Source of the DNA: a phage
Strand: one strand, 5' to 3'
Sequence record: PZ166176.1
DNA: 64,000 nucleotides
The notes under the pieces were generated by a model, which was not told the origin of the DNA, did no database searches, and worked only from the letters and a program-made list of their open reading frames with translations. Shown here piece by piece: positions 3,451 through 35,671 of this stretch. The translations under genes and the position numbers were made by a program. The number at the start of each line of letters is the position of its first letter. Position 1 is the first letter of the stretch.

Positions 3451-3473
3451 TAAAAAACCCGCCGAAGCGGGTT
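3451..3473 (-). terminator. rho-independent terminator
   Basis: Minus strand: AACCCGCTTCGGCGGGTT hairpin followed by TTTTT. Confidence 0.55.
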
Positions 3474-3481
3474 ATTATTTA

Positions 3482-3754
3482 CTAACACATTGAGGAAGAA
3501 GAGATCCAAACACCTCTTGTGGTTAAACCATTTTCATCCAACTCTACACCATAATCTTCACAAATGAAATCAATATAGTGATCTGCGGCTGGCGTTCCTG
3601 TAGGGTAATAAGTTTCTCCGTTACCGTAGTCACCTATCCAAGCTTGTTCCTGAAACTGTTCACAAAGTTCTTCAATCTCCTTACGAAACTTTCTTTGTGC
3701 TTGTTCCATCTCTTTAACTTTCTTTTTTATCAGCAGTTCGCCTTCAGACTCCAC
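3482..3754 (-). CDS. small protein, member of W-x-SSS-C C-terminal tail paralog family
   Basis: GTG start after AAGGAGAG; C-terminus ...GVWISSSSMC. Confidence 0.5.
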   Translation of the reverse strand: MESEGELLIKKKVKEMEQAQRKFRKEIEELCEQFQEQAWIGDYGNGETYYPTGTPAADHYIDFICEDYGVELDENGLTTRGVWISSSSMC

Positions 3755-3763
3755 AATCTCTCC

Positions 3764-3982
3764 TTAACAGCTACTACTGTGCCAAACGCCTTGAGAATTA
3801 ACGACGAAACCATCATCACCTTCACCATAACAAGAAGAGGATTGCCAATCTTCAAAACAGATTGCGTCATTTTCTAAACTAAGACCAAAACCAGCATCTT
3901 CAGCTTCTTTTGTAAGTTCGTCCACTAAAGCCATAATAGCTTGGGCTTTTTCAGTTAATTCTTCAACATTACGATCACTCAT
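3764..3982 (-). CDS. small protein, W-x-SSS-C tail paralog
   Basis: Start set at internal ATG (MSDRN) overlapping stop of upstream gene; C-terminus ...GVWHSSSC. Confidence 0.5.
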   Translation of the reverse strand: MSDRNVEELTEKAQAIMALVDELTKEAEDAGFGLSLENDAICFEDWQSSSCYGEGDDGFVVNSQGVWHSSSC

Positions 3983-4296
3983 TAGTATTTCTCCTCTGGT
4001 TGGAAAACTGAACGACAAGCCCACATACTAGCTTCTTTTAAATGTTTAATAGCACAACGGATTTGATCAATACGTTCGTATGTAAGATCTAATTCTTTTT
4101 CTGTGCCGTCAAAAGACCCATGATATGCTTCACAATACTCTTCCTCTAAAGCTTTGAAGATTAAACCTAAACGCTCTTCTGCATCTTTAATAGCGTTAAC
4201 CTTGCCAATCTTATCGTCAGTATGCGCCTTATAACCTTTGATATCTTCGATTCCCACTTTACCTCCTATTAACAACTTAAAGAAGATGGATGCCAA
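3982..4296 (-). CDS. hypothetical protein
   Basis: Track ORF 104 aa. Confidence 0.45.
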   Translation of the reverse strand: MASIFFKLLIGGKVGIEDIKGYKAHTDDKIGKVNAIKDAEERLGLIFKALEEEYCEAYHGSFDGTEKELDLTYERIDQIRCAIKHLKEASMWACRSVFQPEEKY

Positions 4297-4466
4297 TTTG
4301 TTCCAGTATTCTCATTTTCATCTTCTGGATCATAATAGCCACCCATCCCATATTCAGGGGAGAAACGGAAACCTTTACCAGTCTCATCTGCTAACTGCTC
4401 TGCTTCCGCTAAAGCCTCATAAGCTGCTTTTACGGCTTCTTCTACTGTTTTAAACTTGGTCGTCAT
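4269..4466 (-). CDS. small protein, W-x-SS-x-SC tail paralog
   Basis: C-terminus ...NWHPSSLSC. Confidence 0.45.
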   Translation of the reverse strand: MTTKFKTVEEAVKAAYEALAEAEQLADETGKGFRFSPEYGMGGYYDPEDENENTGTNWHPSSLSC

Positions 4467-4740
4467 AAAATTTCTCCTCTCCTAAAGACATGTTGACATG
4501 AAATGCACGATATGTAAATTCGTTGTCCGTTGTGTTTGAATAAAACTCAAATTGAACAACACCGTCTTGAGAAGACAGATACATGCCAATTTGAACTGTT
4601 CCTTCTGGTACCAGGTAAGCATACTCTGGACGTAGTGTTACATTGTAAAAATAAAGTTCCCCAACACCCATTTCATCCCAAGCTTCCCAAGCGGTAACGA
4701 AGTTACTTTCAAAACTTGTTACTGATCCGAACTCTGCCAT
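4450..4740 (-). CDS. hypothetical protein
   Basis: Track ORF 96 aa. Confidence 0.45.
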   Translation of the reverse strand: MAEFGSVTSFESNFVTAWEAWDEMGVGELYFYNVTLRPEYAYLVPEGTVQIGMYLSSQDGVVQFEFYSNTTDNEFTYRAFHVNMSLGEEKFYDDQV

Positions 4741-5231
4741 AAAACCTCCTCAATCTTGTAGTTTGACTCCATCTCCAACACATTTCCACGAACGTCTCTC
4801 CGAAGAAAGGCATAAGCTTTATTAGGTATTGTAGACTCATATTTAACCATATCTGGTACAGCAAAAGATACTACTACTCCTGCTGGGCTTCTGTCAAGAG
4901 CCTTATTAATATTTCTAAGGATATCGTTAGCCAAGATTTCTGCCAATTCTCCAAGAACGGTTTCGGTTATATCTTTATATCCCATTAAGTATTTGTTGAT
5001 ATCTTTCATCTCTGTATTGTTCAGAGTATAATCCAAAGGATAGAAATTCAAAGCGGAGTCACTTTTATGTGTCCACATGAAATGCACCCGATCCGAGCAG
5101 AATCGTAACCCTCTTTGAAGAATATCTTCTACAACAGGCAGAATTTCTTTTGTCACATCATTAACCATGTTGTAATCTAAGATTTCTGCCAAGTTTGTTC
5201 TTTGTTCACCACGTTTACGTTTAGGAATCAC
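4719..5231 (-). CDS. hypothetical protein
   Basis: Track ORF 170 aa. Confidence 0.45.
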   Translation of the reverse strand: MIPKRKRGEQRTNLAEILDYNMVNDVTKEILPVVEDILQRGLRFCSDRVHFMWTHKSDSALNFYPLDYTLNNTEMKDINKYLMGYKDITETVLGELAEILANDILRNINKALDRSPAGVVVSFAVPDMVKYESTIPNKAYAFLRRDVRGNVLEMESNYKIEEVLWQSSDQ

Positions 5232-5826
5232 TTGTTATTGCCCTCATTACCAAAGGTCGTAGAAAATCGTAAATCTCTTGTTTTGTTTTCCCACGAATGT
5301 TTAAACAAGGAACATTATTGGCTTTAGCTATCTTCCAAGCCGTAGCTGTTCCACCTTTTGCATCTCCATGTTTATCAGTATTAGCACAAGCCAACAAGAA
5401 ACATGATGGAGCAGGATTCTCCAAATCTCTACCTAACACTTGATGCACATTACGTTGGTGCAATTTTCTAGCACCCTGCTTAAGCTTTTCATAGGCTGGG
5501 TGAACATCTTTGATCCATTGCACAGAAATAGCATAGTTCATTGTATCTGGTTTTGCAAGAACAATAACATCCCCTGGAATCTGATTACCTTTGAAATTTT
5601 CCCAAGGAACATAAATCTCCTTGTTAGTAGGATTTTCAGACTCTTGGACACCTGTTTCAAAAGCAGAATCACTACCCTCTGCCTTCCCAGACCTTAATTT
5701 AAACCCAAGGTTTGAAAGCCATTTCCCTATGCCTACCATCAAAGCCCACTCTTCTTCGGATATGTCTCTACTTCCAACTCCCGTATAGAACAGTTCTGCC
5801 ATAATCACCTCAACAAGTAATTTCAA
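5221..5826 (-). CDS. DprA/Smf-like SLOG-domain (Rossmann-fold nucleotide-binding) protein
   Basis: TGVGSRD...RSGKAEGSDSAFETG matches the GSR...SGxAxGxDxxA signature of DprA/LOG-type SLOG domains. Confidence 0.45.
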   Translation of the reverse strand: MKLLVEVIMAELFYTGVGSRDISEEEWALMVGIGKWLSNLGFKLRSGKAEGSDSAFETGVQESENPTNKEIYVPWENFKGNQIPGDVIVLAKPDTMNYAISVQWIKDVHPAYEKLKQGARKLHQRNVHQVLGRDLENPAPSCFLLACANTDKHGDAKGGTATAWKIAKANNVPCLNIRGKTKQEIYDFLRPLVMRAITSDS

Positions 5827-6118
5827 AAGGTGTATAGGGTTCCGTATTTCTCATGATCCAAGGACTGCTAGGATTGCTCGGATCATAAGGGCCAAAAGGT
5901 TTTATGGTAGGTTGTGTTTCTTTCTTCTGAATCTCTTCAAAAATACGACGAAGTTCAGAATATTCTTGATCCACCATAAGATTCGGTGCATCTGATTCTA
6001 CAGCTTGCAGGTTATCTTCCTTAAGAACAATCTCACGAACAAGATTAACATCTTCTGTTTCTAAGATAACTTCTTTACGGATATTGCCTACACTTTGAAT
6101 AATTGTAATCTTATACAT
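5810..6118 (-). CDS. hypothetical protein
   Basis: Track ORF 102 aa. Confidence 0.45.
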   Translation of the reverse strand: MYKITIIQSVGNIRKEVILETEDVNLVREIVLKEDNLQAVESDAPNLMVDQEYSELRRIFEEIQKKETQPTIKPFGPYDPSNPSSPWIMRNTEPYTPFEITC

Positions 6119-6861
6119 TAATCCTCCTCAAGAGTTGAATAAAATTGAAGACCACCGTCCATATCGAAATAAGCAAATGTTAAGTTATTATTGAACACAG
6201 ATCCAGTATCCATATAAACACGATTCGCATTGATAATAGGTGTTTTTACATAAGAGTGTCCATGAAACACATAATCCACACCCATCACAACAGGAAGTTT
6301 CATTCCCTCTTTAGCACAATCCACCATATCTCTGTCCCACATAAGTGCTTCAGCAAAACGGTTTTCCTGTGTTTTTGTCATCTTCGAAGTGTATTCTGGA
6401 ATATCTGTTACAGGGAGATATTCCAAAGAAGACGGATACCCACCATGAATAAACGCAAGTTTCATGCCTCTGTAGTTAACAATGAGAACAACAGGTAAAT
6501 CTTCTGTCATCATTGCTAAGGCTGTAGCTCCTTCTTCACCACATTCTTCAAGGACCGTATATCCTCCATTTTGATACCAACACTCGAAGTAGCTACGATC
6601 TCCTTCCAGCATACCTTTAATCATCATGTCTTCATGATTTCCACGAATAGCGTAGCGATTGTGTTTACGAGTAAATTCTAAAACACAACGAAAGTTTTGC
6701 TTTCCACGGTCAGTAAGATCTCCTAGAGATACAACCACATCTGTATCTCGGATACCTAACTTTGCCTTTCCTTTTTCATACAAATTATAACAACCGTGTA
6801 GATCTCCAATTATAAAAAGATCTTGATCGCTTTTAACAGTAATTTCTCTGTGTATGATCAC
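6118..6861 (-). CDS. Ser/Thr protein phosphatase (calcineurin-like metallophosphoesterase)
   Basis: GDLHG, GDLTDRG, GNHE and HGH metal-binding motifs in canonical order. Confidence 0.75.
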   Translation of the reverse strand: MIIHREITVKSDQDLFIIGDLHGCYNLYEKGKAKLGIRDTDVVVSLGDLTDRGKQNFRCVLEFTRKHNRYAIRGNHEDMMIKGMLEGDRSYFECWYQNGGYTVLEECGEEGATALAMMTEDLPVVLIVNYRGMKLAFIHGGYPSSLEYLPVTDIPEYTSKMTKTQENRFAEALMWDRDMVDCAKEGMKLPVVMGVDYVFHGHSYVKTPIINANRVYMDTGSVFNNNLTFAYFDMDGGLQFYSTLEED

Positions 6862-7187
6862 TTATCCTCCTCAAAATCTAAGAAAATAAAAATATTCACC
6901 TTTCCTTCAATCTCTTGTTCTAAAACAAGATCGGCAAATTCTGCATAAGCTTTCTCTTCAACTTTTTCAATATGTTCTGCGGCATCTTTAAAAGGCGTAT
7001 CCCCATCCACCTTTACTAATAAGAAAAGAGATCGCATTTCGACGCTTTTACTGTTACGAGGAAGGAAATCTACAGCTTCAACAATTCTCCAACCCAAATA
7101 GCCAGGGGTTTTATGAATCTCCCCTAAATACTTTTCTAAGATTTTACGACCCTCGTCGATAAGGGCTTGTTCTGTAGTAATTTCCAT
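6858..7187 (-). CDS. hypothetical protein
   Basis: Track ORF 109 aa. Confidence 0.45.
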   Translation of the reverse strand: MEITTEQALIDEGRKILEKYLGEIHKTPGYLGWRIVEAVDFLPRNSKSVEMRSLFLLVKVDGDTPFKDAAEHIEKVEEKAYAEFADLVLEQEIEGKVNIFIFLDFEEDK

Positions 7188-7197
7188 TCCTTCCTCC

Positions 7198-7788
7198 TCA
7201 AATTATTAACGAAACCGCATGACTAAATCTTGGTTCAGATATAACCTCTGCTACAGTCACATATGTATCGTGCAGCCAAAAAGATTCTACTCTACAAACA
7301 CAAATACCGTTGATAATGAAATCTATACAGGCTTTATTATTTTCGCACACTTGTTGACTATAAACAACTCCTAAAGAGTCATAAAGTGATCTCACTGTTG
7401 CTACCATTTCATCTGTTTCGTCTTCCTGTGAAACAAAGAAAACGAATACAGACAAGTTATTAGCGAAAGTATTGCTATTCTCTACTTCAACCGACTTACA
7501 AGGTAAAAAGGAGTAATATTTACCGTTAGGTATCAATTTCGCCTCAACCTGGTTAAGTACGCTTTGAGATGGTTTTGTTACATAAAAAAGATTTTCTGTT
7601 GGGTTTTCAACATTACTCCTTACTATGCAACGAGTGGGGTTCGAAGGATCAAAAACATGATCGAAATCGACACACACAGGTAAGTTAACAACTTTAAACT
7701 TTTTGCTAAGAATGCTTACTGCTGTAAAAATCAAACCAGCATTTATTTTGCCAGTGAAAGTTGAACGCATAACTACTCCTCGGATCAT
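7198..7788 (-). CDS. hypothetical protein
   Basis: Track ORF 196 aa. Confidence 0.45.
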   Translation of the reverse strand: MIRGVVMRSTFTGKINAGLIFTAVSILSKKFKVVNLPVCVDFDHVFDPSNPTRCIVRSNVENPTENLFYVTKPSQSVLNQVEAKLIPNGKYYSFLPCKSVEVENSNTFANNLSVFVFFVSQEDETDEMVATVRSLYDSLGVVYSQQVCENNKACIDFIINGICVCRVESFWLHDTYVTVAEVISEPRFSHAVSLII

Positions 7789-7979
7789 TCTACCAAAGAG
7801 AATTCCGCCTCTTCCAGGTAGATTACAGACCTTGTTGCATGATATTTAACGCTCCAGAAATTACCTTCGCGCCGTAAAAGTATCTCATTCACATCAAGAT
7901 TGCTTAGAAAAACCATATAACTTAAAGCTTGTTGACGCGTTGAGAATTGTTTCTCTAAAAGTTCTTCTCCGCTCTGCAT
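7785..7979 (-). CDS. hypothetical small protein
   Basis: Track ORF 64 aa, 4-nt overlap with downstream gene. Confidence 0.4.
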   Translation of the reverse strand: MQSGEELLEKQFSTRQQALSYMVFLSNLDVNEILLRREGNFWSVKYHATRSVIYLEEAEFSLVE

Positions 7980-8024
7980 AATCCCTCCTTAAAATACTCC
8001 CTCCGAAAAGGGAGTATAAGTATA

Positions 8025-9404: not shown

Positions 9405-9449
9405 TATTAATCTCCTATGTTTAAGAAATGCCCCCGAAGGGGCAGTTTG

Positions 9450-35005: not shown

Positions 35006-35080
35006 GGCCCTGTAGCTCAATGGGAGAGCTGTCGGCTCATAACCGATAGGTAGCTGGATCGAAACCAGCCAGGGCCACCA
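35006..35080 (+). tRNA. tRNA with CAT anticodon (resembles tRNA-Ile2 / elongator Met)
   Basis: Hand-folded cloverleaf: acceptor GGCCCTG/CAGGGCC, anticodon loop CTCATAA, T-loop ATCGAAA, encoded CCA. Confidence 0.7.
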
Positions 35081-35082
35081 AC

Positions 35083-35157
35083 GTCTTTATGGTGTAATGG
35101 ATAGCACAGGAGTCTTCTAAACTCTTAGTCAAGGTTCGATTCCTTGTAAAGACACCA
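35083..35157 (+). tRNA. tRNA-Arg (TCT)
   Basis: Acceptor GTCTTTA/TAAAGAC, anticodon loop CTTCTAA, T-arm CAAGG-TTCGATT-CCTTG, CCA. Confidence 0.7.
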
Positions 35158-35158
35158 G

Positions 35159-35342
35159 AACATTTTAACATGAATTAGCTCAAGTGATTTGAACCCACTA
35201 CTGATCATGGTGGCAGAGAATGAGGCAAGTATGTCAGACATTATAAACAAAGGCCACGGTTATATTAGAAGACATAAATGCTCGAAGAGCACCGTTCGTT
35301 GAGAACGGGGGTTGGTGGAGTCACCATTCATGGTAAAATGTT
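35159..35342 (+). ncRNA. structured RNA of about 185 nt following tRNA-Arg
   Basis: 5' AACATTTTAACATGAAT pairs with 3' ATTCATGGTAAAATGTT (one mismatch); no ORF. Confidence 0.35.
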
Positions 35343-35353
35343 TTAAAAAACTA

Positions 35354-35384
35354 TTGACAACTAACATTATTTTATGTTAGATTA
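35354..35384 (+). promoter_or_regulatory. sigma70-like promoter (ctaTTGACAa ... TGtTAGATT)
   Basis: TTGACA and extended -10-like element upstream of tRNA-Ser. Confidence 0.45.
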
Positions 35385-35391
35385 TAAGTAT

Positions 35392-35482
35392 GGAAGGGCA
35401 AATCGACGTGGCGACGAAAACGGTCTTGAAAACCGCCGAGCTTGAAAGAGCCTTGGGAGTTCGACTCTCCCTCCTTCCGCCA
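35392..35482 (+). tRNA. tRNA-Ser (TGA), long variable arm
   Basis: Acceptor GGAAGGG/TCCTTCC, anticodon loop CTTGAAA, long variable arm, T-arm GGGAG-TTCGACT-CTCCC, G73-CCA; D-arm atypical. Confidence 0.55.
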
Positions 35483-35486
35483 GATT

Positions 35487-35572
35487 GGTAGATTGGTGAA
35501 ATGGTAGCCACGACAGTTTGCTAAACTGTAGTCGGAAACGGCGTGTAGGTTCGAGTCCTACATCTACCGCCA
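35487..35572 (+). tRNA. tRNA-Ser (GCT), long variable arm
   Basis: Acceptor GGTAGAT/ATCTACC, anticodon stem ACAGT/ACTGT loop TTGCTAA, variable arm AGTCGGAAACGGCGT, G73-CCA. Confidence 0.7.
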
Positions 35573-35578
35573 AATTAA

Positions 35579-35664
35579 GATGAGTTGGCTGAATGGTTTA
35601 AGCGGCGGACTGTTAATCCGTGTTCGAAAGAACGATATAGGTTCAAATCCTATACTCATCGCCA
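35579..35664 (+). tRNA. class II (long variable arm) tRNA with GTT (Asn) anticodon; identity ambiguous
   Basis: Acceptor GATGAGT/ACTCATC (7 bp), anticodon stem GCGGA/TCCGT loop CTGTTAA, variable arm GTTCGAAAGAACGAT with GTTC/GAAC stem, T-arm ATAGG-TTCAAAT-CCTAT, G73-CCA. Confidence 0.55.
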
Positions 35665-35671
35665 GAATTAT

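Follow-up and report, generated by a model that had tools for sequence, protein, structure and literature searches.

What a phage does with a stand-alone SLOG domain is the question raised by a minus-strand gene in record PZ166176.1, from which we analyzed a stretch of 64,000 nucleotides (the window) belonging to a phAPEC8-like Phapecoctavirus, an Escherichia coli myovirus of ~150 kb. A preliminary description had placed a DprA/LOG-type SLOG protein at positions 5221-5826 and proposed that it acts as a sponge or hydrolase for nucleotide-derived immune signals or, equally, in the handling of single-stranded DNA (ssDNA) like DprA. By its residues, the protein is a SLOG domain of the DprA branch, not of the LOG or ThsA branch, and we tentatively favor the interpretation that this module would dock one nucleotide of a single-stranded nucleic acid and work with NADAR and Macro enzymes against NAD+-derived attack. 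The gene is an ordinary one that has been annotated before; it belongs to the known phage family PHROG 768, which shares with RefSeq the label "DprA-like DNA recombination-mediator protein", an annotation name derived from no tested function.

The sequence GVGSRD...RSGKAEGSDSAFETG, quoted in the preliminary description, is contained in the minus-strand open reading frame (ORF) ending at 5221. This is a real gene, but its start had to be corrected. An ATG at 5802 is preceded in the sequence by GAGGTG, a Shine-Dalgarno-like element (5806..5811, minus strand); it agrees with the N-termini of the homologues, and an identical protein in the RefSeq genome NC_052658 (gp207) is annotated with the same start. 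The real gene is therefore most likely 5221..5802 on the minus strand, encoding a stand-alone DprA-clade SLOG protein of 193 amino acids (aa) plus the stop codon. The 201-aa version with a TTG start at 5826 (24 extra bases) was rejected as a mechanical ORF extension: this TTG falls within the gene upstream, and it is the ATG that follows a ribosome-binding site. The GAGGTG overlaps the TGA stop (5812-5810) of the upstream 102-aa gene, an arrangement that suggests translational coupling of the two genes.

The profile hidden Markov model (HMM) of PHROG 768 matches residues 2-182 of the protein over profile positions 2-180 of 191 (E 2e-62, 211 bits), and the AlphaFold2 model of the 193-aa protein reaches a predicted local distance difference test (pLDDT) value of 95.6, a confidently predicted fold. 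General sequence searches gave much less: the Pfam DprA model PF02481 scored 12.7 bits (E 0.073; cutoff 29.6) with a match limited to residues 9-52, no other Pfam SLOG model, including those for LOG and ThsA, was matched, the NCBIfam search returned no match to the SLOG protein, and a single-sequence search of the PDB sequences returned noise only. The family profile searched against the PDB sequences reached 3MAJ at E 0.023, in its N-terminal part only. The structure searches with the model bore out the relationship to DprA, LOG, and YpsA that had been proposed for the fold, and the protein can be assigned to the SLOG superfamily (the SMF/DprA-LOG Rossmannoids). The highest score was that of the molybdenum cofactor (Moco) carrier protein (15.8), followed by DprA (3MAJ, 15.5; 4LJK, 14.9), TM1055 (14.8), LOG/YgdH (13.9-14.0), ShosA (13.2), YpsA (12.3), and, as the most distant of the SLOG matches, the ThsA SLOG domain bound to 3'-cyclic ADP-ribose (3'cADPR; 10.9). 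Foldseek placed the chains of Helicobacter pylori DprA (HpDprA) at the top, with a best E-value of 5.8e-5. When the phage family profile was aligned with hhalign to an alignment of five DprA-type Rossmann domains, the match extended over 143 columns with an E-value of 1.1e-5, and the four motifs described below were all in register.

Residue conservation was computed over 263 family members. Ten residues are conserved in all of them (G10, R12, R37, G39, D45, R117, N118, Q121, G151, and T152), and a further eight in at least 95% (S11, S38, P66, W67, H101, H115, T154, and N168). In the AlphaFold2 model all of these lie in the loops or helix starts that follow the strands, which is the classical ligand site of a Rossmann fold. 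The first motif, G10-S11-R12 (5767..5781, minus strand; S11 conserved in 96%), corresponds to the "G-S/T/A-R" of DprA, with R12 aligned to R52 of HpDprA. The second (5659..5694, minus strand) corresponds to the DprA motif S-G-x-A-x-G-x-D, aligns with the SGLAxGID of DprA, and includes R37 as a residue specific to the phage family. Directly after strand 3 (residues 61-65 of the model) follows the family-specific P66-W67 (5602..5607, minus strand; 99% and 96% conserved). The third DprA-type motif, L114-H-Q-R117-N118-V-H-Q121-V-L-G124 (5431..5463, minus strand), lies in the helix formed by residues 109-123 and corresponds to "F/L/Y-x-x-R-N/D"; R117 and N118 align with R143 and N144 of HpDprA, and L114 is present in 91% of the members, the others having a methionine. 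The fourth (5338..5358, minus strand) corresponds to the S-G-S-x-x-T of DprA, with G151 aligned to G164 of HpDprA.

Wang et al. named "G-S/T/A-R" and "F/L/Y-x-x-R-N/D" as the signatures of ssDNA-binding DprA, in contrast to the "P-G-G-x-G-T-x-x-E" of LOG (PMC3950713), and both signatures are present in the phage protein. In HpDprA they are found at G50-R52, after the first core strand, and at F140-N144, in the base-pocket helix; R52 gates the pocket, R143, N144, and G164 hold a flipped thymine, and the affinity for ssDNA is lowered ~315-fold by R52E and 173-fold by R143E (PMC3950713). The related ShosA binds ssDNA through the homologous arginines R139 and R234, which align with R12 and R117 (PMC12961424). 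Isoelectric point (pI) and net charge were uninformative in this comparison, with a median pI of 8.1 for the family versus 5.7-9.2 for the DprA domains.

One reading of such a pocket is that implied by the PHROG and RefSeq label, namely that the protein mediates recombination like DprA, by coating phage ssDNA and loading the host RecA or a phage recombinase. The conserved ssDNA-binding motifs agree with this, as do frequent neighboring genes for helicases, exonucleases, polymerases, and an RdgC-like protein. It is nevertheless unlikely, given what is missing. The RecA-binding triad and the dimerization zone have been defined in the DprA of Streptococcus pneumoniae (SpDprA; PMC4066776). In the sequence alignment, E235, D243, and E265 of the triad correspond to K157 (a variable position), P165, and no residue at all; the dimerization zone (residues 249-275) has no counterpart, as the hhalign match extends no further than residue 173, after which there is a single helix (174-192); and the 193-aa single-domain protein has neither the N-terminal SAM domain nor the C-terminal winged-helix domain. 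These accessory domains are not strictly defining, because some bacterial DprA proteins are single-domain as well (PMC3950713), but dimerization is needed for the function of both DprA and ShosA (PMC12961424, PMC4066776). The Pfam DprA score is also far below its cutoff. The T4-like carriers of the family have recombination machinery of their own, and in Aeromonas phage 31 the gene for the gp47 nuclease subunit adjoins the SLOG gene. These T4-like carriers also encode the UvsX/UvsY loader. Of the proposed ssDNA handling like DprA, the alignments thus support the binding pocket, with its motifs kept, but not the determinants of RecA loading. Since the RecA-loading apparatus is absent, the label "recombination mediator" draws on the shared pocket alone and is, as far as the sequence allows judgment, probably misleading.

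LOG-type chemistry would offer another use of the fold, namely a nucleotide-pool N-glycosidase or phosphoribohydrolase acting on (deoxy)nucleoside monophosphates or modified nucleotides, like LOG, PpnN, or DNPH1, alongside the ribonucleotide reductase, ThyX, and kinases of the phage. The alignment shows that the motif P-G-G-x-G-T-x-x-E with its catalytic glutamate is absent: the equivalent segment reads K149-G-G-T-A-T-A-W-K157, with the variable K157 at the position of the glutamate. LOG-type catalysis was ruled out by the absence of this motif, and no LOG model was matched at the sequence level. No invariant catalytic acid specific to the family was seen either, and none occurs in the 263 members after strand 3, the place that Iyer et al. 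(2022, PMC9503650) give for the catalytic residues of the clade. In favor of an enzyme of the nucleotide pool, the gene recurs in the family next to those for PhoH, ribonucleotide reductase, thioredoxin, ThyX/ThyA, thymidine kinase (TK), thymidylate kinase (TMK), dCMP deaminase, and dihydrofolate reductase (DHFR); this context is not specific, because such clusters also hold unrelated genes of DNA metabolism, and we consider a role of this kind very unlikely.

The searches against defense systems raised one more candidate. ShosA and PsyrA were the sole PADLOC models matched, and ThsA was not among the PADLOC matches. The phage protein might thus be an orphan mimic of these antitoxins that neutralizes ShosTA or PsyrTA, for which the orphan phage NADAR antitoxins acting against DarTG1 provide a precedent (PMC11825919, PMC11125620). 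Both matches are weak (E 0.02) and cover the N-terminal motif only, ShosA needs a SAM domain, dimerization, and RecA binding (PMC12961424), all of which the phage protein lacks, and the family seems far more common than ShosTA or PsyrTA would require. An antitoxin mimic is the most improbable of the functions considered here.

The family is large and essentially phage-borne, spanning myoviruses and N4-like, T4-like, and jumbo phages. PHROG 768 was found in 1,443 of 50,697 phage records, with phages of Klebsiella, Pseudomonas, Escherichia, Aeromonas, Vibrio, and Acinetobacter among them, and a profile search yielded 5,980 representatives at 50% identity, mostly of 170-210 aa. A few members are fused to other domains, and these fusions support a link of the family to an ADP-ribose network: NADAR-SLOG fusions were found in P0142 and P0236 and a DUF4326-SLOG fusion in P0202; in P0121 and P0122 (~1,480 aa) this SLOG domain is accompanied by domains from two further SLOG families and by NADAR. 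The pocket residues are retained in all five. NADAR enzymes take ADP-ribose off guanine in DNA; those of phages, such as T4 gp30.3 (renamed AdfN), neutralize DarTG1 (PMC11125620, PMC11825919). In five fused members the extra domains belong to PHROG 2072 or 9995, both of unknown function, or gave no match. Two unrelated sequences, P0119 (L089 8001-9002) and P0211, carry a C-terminal PHROG 2072 domain of ~140-165 aa with the motif VFVFGSN..G.HGAG...YALPT; on the phage-like contig L089 a DUF4326-NADAR gene is located 0.8 kb away from this fusion, and a PNKP-like (polynucleotide kinase-phosphatase) gene is nearby. The same functional network may also include PHROG 2072.

Such associations have been described for viral SLOG domains in general. 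In the survey of viral NAD+/ADP-ribose domains by Iyer et al. (2022, PMC9503650), 7-31% of phages had SLOG domains, the share varying with genome size, and these domains were fused to or co-occurred with Macro, NADAR, and DUF4326. The authors suggested that the viral SLOGs, stated to be uncharacterized, sense or degrade cADPR-like signals. The sponge or hydrolase of the preliminary description is therefore not a new idea and in effect restates this prediction. In the family, fusions to or neighborhoods with these domains do occur; this gene itself is neither fused to nor adjoined by any of them.

To describe the neighborhoods, we used 74 viral loci representing 37 lineages at 60% identity, with four genes on each side grouped by BLAST clusters. 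The Pfam matches of the flanking genes belong mostly to DNA and nucleotide metabolism (helicases, PhoH, ThyX, TK, TMK, dCMP deaminase, DHFR, DnaB, and PolA), with Macro and NAPRTase also among them. Within 6 kb of the SLOG gene, PhoH was found in nine lineages, Macro in six, a NAMPT-like gene in five, and NADAR in two. In the Pakpunavirus-like phages, a Prs-like, a NAMPT-like, and a Macro gene are followed by two small ORFs and then by SLOG, all within about 4 kb; an example is ORF24-ORF20 of Pseudomonas phage vB_PaeM_C2-10_Ab02 (L007 7-3518), in which the Macro protein is annotated as a "phosphatase". The Prs-like and NAMPT-like proteins match the enzyme types described for NARP1 in PMC13464706. 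The paper on NARP3 leaves the PHROG 768 family unmentioned.

Judging from the reference Phapecoctavirus, these phages carry a set of NAD+/ADP-ribose domains that is hidden by the current annotation, because the NADAR is unlabeled and the Macro protein is called a "phosphatase". In NC_052658, gp118 (74245-74787; L003 25446-25988), annotated as a "hypothetical protein", is a NADAR (Pfam E 1.8e-35), and the "phosphatase" gp077 (94332-94805; L003 45533-46006) is a Macro protein whose score of 23 bits just exceeds the cutoff of 22 and which matches the Macro family of the Pakpunavirus phages at E 1.3e-46. A Sir2-like gene of the reference phage lies ~6.4 kb from the SLOG gene, just past the edge of the window.

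Along the lines of the preliminary description and of Iyer et al., the protein may be a sponge or N-glycosidase for soluble immune messengers or toxins derived from NAD+ (cADPR isomers or other ADP-ribose derivatives, for instance), which would blunt Thoeris-type or similar signaling and possibly feed ADP-ribose into NAD+ reconstitution. Besides the published prediction with its links to Macro, NADAR, and DUF4326 (PMC9503650), this is favored by the NADAR and DUF4326 fusions that our analysis confirms, by the Prs-like, NAMPT-like, and Macro genes just upstream of the SLOG gene in the Pakpunavirus-like phages, and by a single pocket lined with many invariant polar residues. The nearest relatives by sequence and motifs are, however, the ssDNA-binding DprA and ShosA, with ThsA matched in neither Pfam nor PADLOC; the LOG glutamate and a family-specific invariant acid after strand 3 are both wanting; the neighborhood evidence comes mostly from one phage clade; and the searchable literature reports no sponge or hydrolase of this fold. 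We regard this as a possible but rather doubtful function.

Our own preference is that the minimal stand-alone SLOG domain would be a nucleotide-docking module and not a RecA loader. A single pocket on top of the Rossmann sheet, formed by R12, R37, D45, W67, H101, H115, R117, N118, Q121, G151, and T152, would clamp one nucleotide or base of a single-stranded nucleic acid, with R12 as the putative gate and R117 and N118 predicted to steer the base, by homology with DprA and ShosA; a single-stranded nucleic acid is proposed because its binding is the sole activity demonstrated for proteins with these motifs. During early or middle infection the protein might then assist ADP-ribose-removing enzymes as their reader or targeting partner, with NADAR gp118 and Macro gp077 of the reference phage as candidates, and so help them deal with NAD+-derived attack by the host on the DNA or nucleotides of the phage. 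A role as such a partner is suggested because the apparatus for dimerization and RecA loading is absent and because family members that keep this pocket occur as fusions with NADAR and DUF4326. The SLOG fusion close to a DUF4326-NADAR gene on L089, the NADAR, Macro, and Sir2 proteins of the reference phage, and the usual location of the gene among those of DNA and nucleotide metabolism also speak for this reading.

A bolder version of this is that PHROG 768 is a new reader, or even a glycohydrolase, of ADP-ribosylated bases in ssDNA. The DprA-type pocket would flip out and hold a modified nucleotide, for example one carrying a DarT-type adduct, which would explain the fusions to NADAR and DUF4326. 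We consider both the reader and the glycohydrolase improbable, slightly more so than the recombination mediator; if true, the family would be a second class of phage anti-DarT factor besides NADAR and Macro.

Several observations weigh against the docking module and its proposed partnership. The conserved DprA motifs do not prove an ssDNA ligand, because other SLOG branches bind AMP derivatives, 3'cADPR, or Moco. R37, W67, H101, H115, and Q121, which are invariant or nearly so in the family and missing in DprA, would fit a more specific small ligand or catalysis, and it is mainly for this reason that the small-ligand and enzymatic readings were kept; a fusion to NADAR fits a soluble ADP-ribose-derived ligand equally well. 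The NADAR fusions moreover account for few members (4 among the best 150 representatives), and no partner gene is conserved across lineages, the best cluster being present in 4 of the 37. All neighborhoods with Macro or NAMPT-like genes come from Pakpunavirus-like contigs of ~60-100 kb and may for this reason reflect one conserved synteny, not independent events. In the reference phage, the NADAR and Macro genes lie tens of kb from the SLOG gene, outside the window, and the distribution of this NADAR among genera is unlike that of the SLOG family. Finally, our searches of the searchable literature turned up no experimental work on the SLOG or DprA-like proteins of phages.

The family is common and its pocket very strongly conserved, and the protein is a cheap and well-defined target for biochemistry. 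If the domain turns out to target immune nucleotides or DNA linked to ADP-ribose, phage counter-defense against NAD+-based immunity, such as DarTG, Thoeris, and Sir2 systems, would gain a widespread component, and the ligand of a conserved DprA pocket would be clarified.

Positions 4000-8000 of the window are 99.6% identical to Escherichia phage ETEC-TG and at least 95% identical to dozens of related phages. The SLOG gene overlaps or abuts both neighbors: directly upstream lies the 102-aa gene (5810..6118, minus strand; PHROG 15301, function unknown), which is probably cotranscribed with it, and downstream a 170-aa gene (4719..5231, minus strand; PHROG 8569, function unknown) that overlaps its end by 11 nt. 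Two genes upstream, a calcineurin-like metallophosphoesterase (6118..6861, minus strand; Pfam Metallophos E 3.4e-13), annotated as a NinI-like Ser/Thr phosphatase, is part of the same tightly packed run; its substrate could be a nucleotide instead of a protein. The codirectional block around the SLOG gene encodes ribonucleotide reductase, ThyX, ligases, exonucleases, PhoH, methyltransferases, and the metallophosphatase. The SLOG gene lies between two terminator-like hairpins on the minus strand, one upstream of the gene block (9429..9444) and one downstream (3456..3473), the latter followed by a promoter-like site (3450-3422); all three come from a pattern scan only. A location in the early region, as the preliminary description had it, is plausible.

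A few further features of the window were recorded. Just downstream of the SLOG block, three small minus-strand ORFs at 3482-3754, 3764-4024, and 4269-4466 (90, 86, and 65 aa) have similar C-termini (...GVWISSSSMC, ...GVWHSSSC, and ...NWHPSSLSC) and look like a tandem paralogue family of acidic proteins. The 196-aa ORF at 7198-7788 (minus strand) is labeled "histidyl tRNA synthetase" in RefSeq and PHROG, which is implausible for an ORF of this size and probably an annotation artifact. Ten tRNA genes (Met twice, Arg, Ser, Asn, Thr, Gly, Gln, Pro, and Ile) occupy 35006-36710 on the plus strand. The gene for the large terminase subunit (38213-40288, 691 aa) is unbroken in the window; in phage nepoznato (NC_052658, 3553-6597) the terminase is annotated in two parts around an HNH homing-endonuclease gene, an insertion that is absent from this window.

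Compared with known systems, the phage protein is distant from ThsA, the 3'cADPR sensor of type I Thoeris (7UXS), which has a SIR2 or other effector domain that the phage protein lacks and which it does not match at the sequence level. With LOG/PpnN (YgdH) and the Chlamydomonas Moco carrier it shares the fold, without the P-G-G-x-G-T-x-x-E motif and without detectable sequence similarity. ShosA and PsyrA, the antitoxins of ShosTA and PsyrTA (8ZVA, 9VZO), have the DprA-type Rossmann domain in common with it, whereas the SAM domain, dimer, RecA binding, and phosphoribosyltransferase (PRTase) toxin partner of ShosA have no equivalent in the phage protein. Another close system is the Rossmann-fold domain of DprA/Smf (PF02481; H. 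pylori 4LJK/4LJR, S. pneumoniae 3UQZ, and Rhodopseudomonas palustris 3MAJ), from which the phage family differs in lacking the last strands of the extended fold, in the added invariant residues R37, W67, H101, H115, and Q121, in being phage-borne, and in the fusion of some members to NADAR or DUF4326. It also resembles the viral stand-alone SLOGs of Iyer et al. in consisting of a phage SLOG domain alone, with NADAR or DUF4326 fusions and adjoining Macro genes in family members; whereas these authors put most viral SLOGs in a YpsA-like clade, PHROG 768 is nearer to DprA, both by sequence and in the two structure searches.

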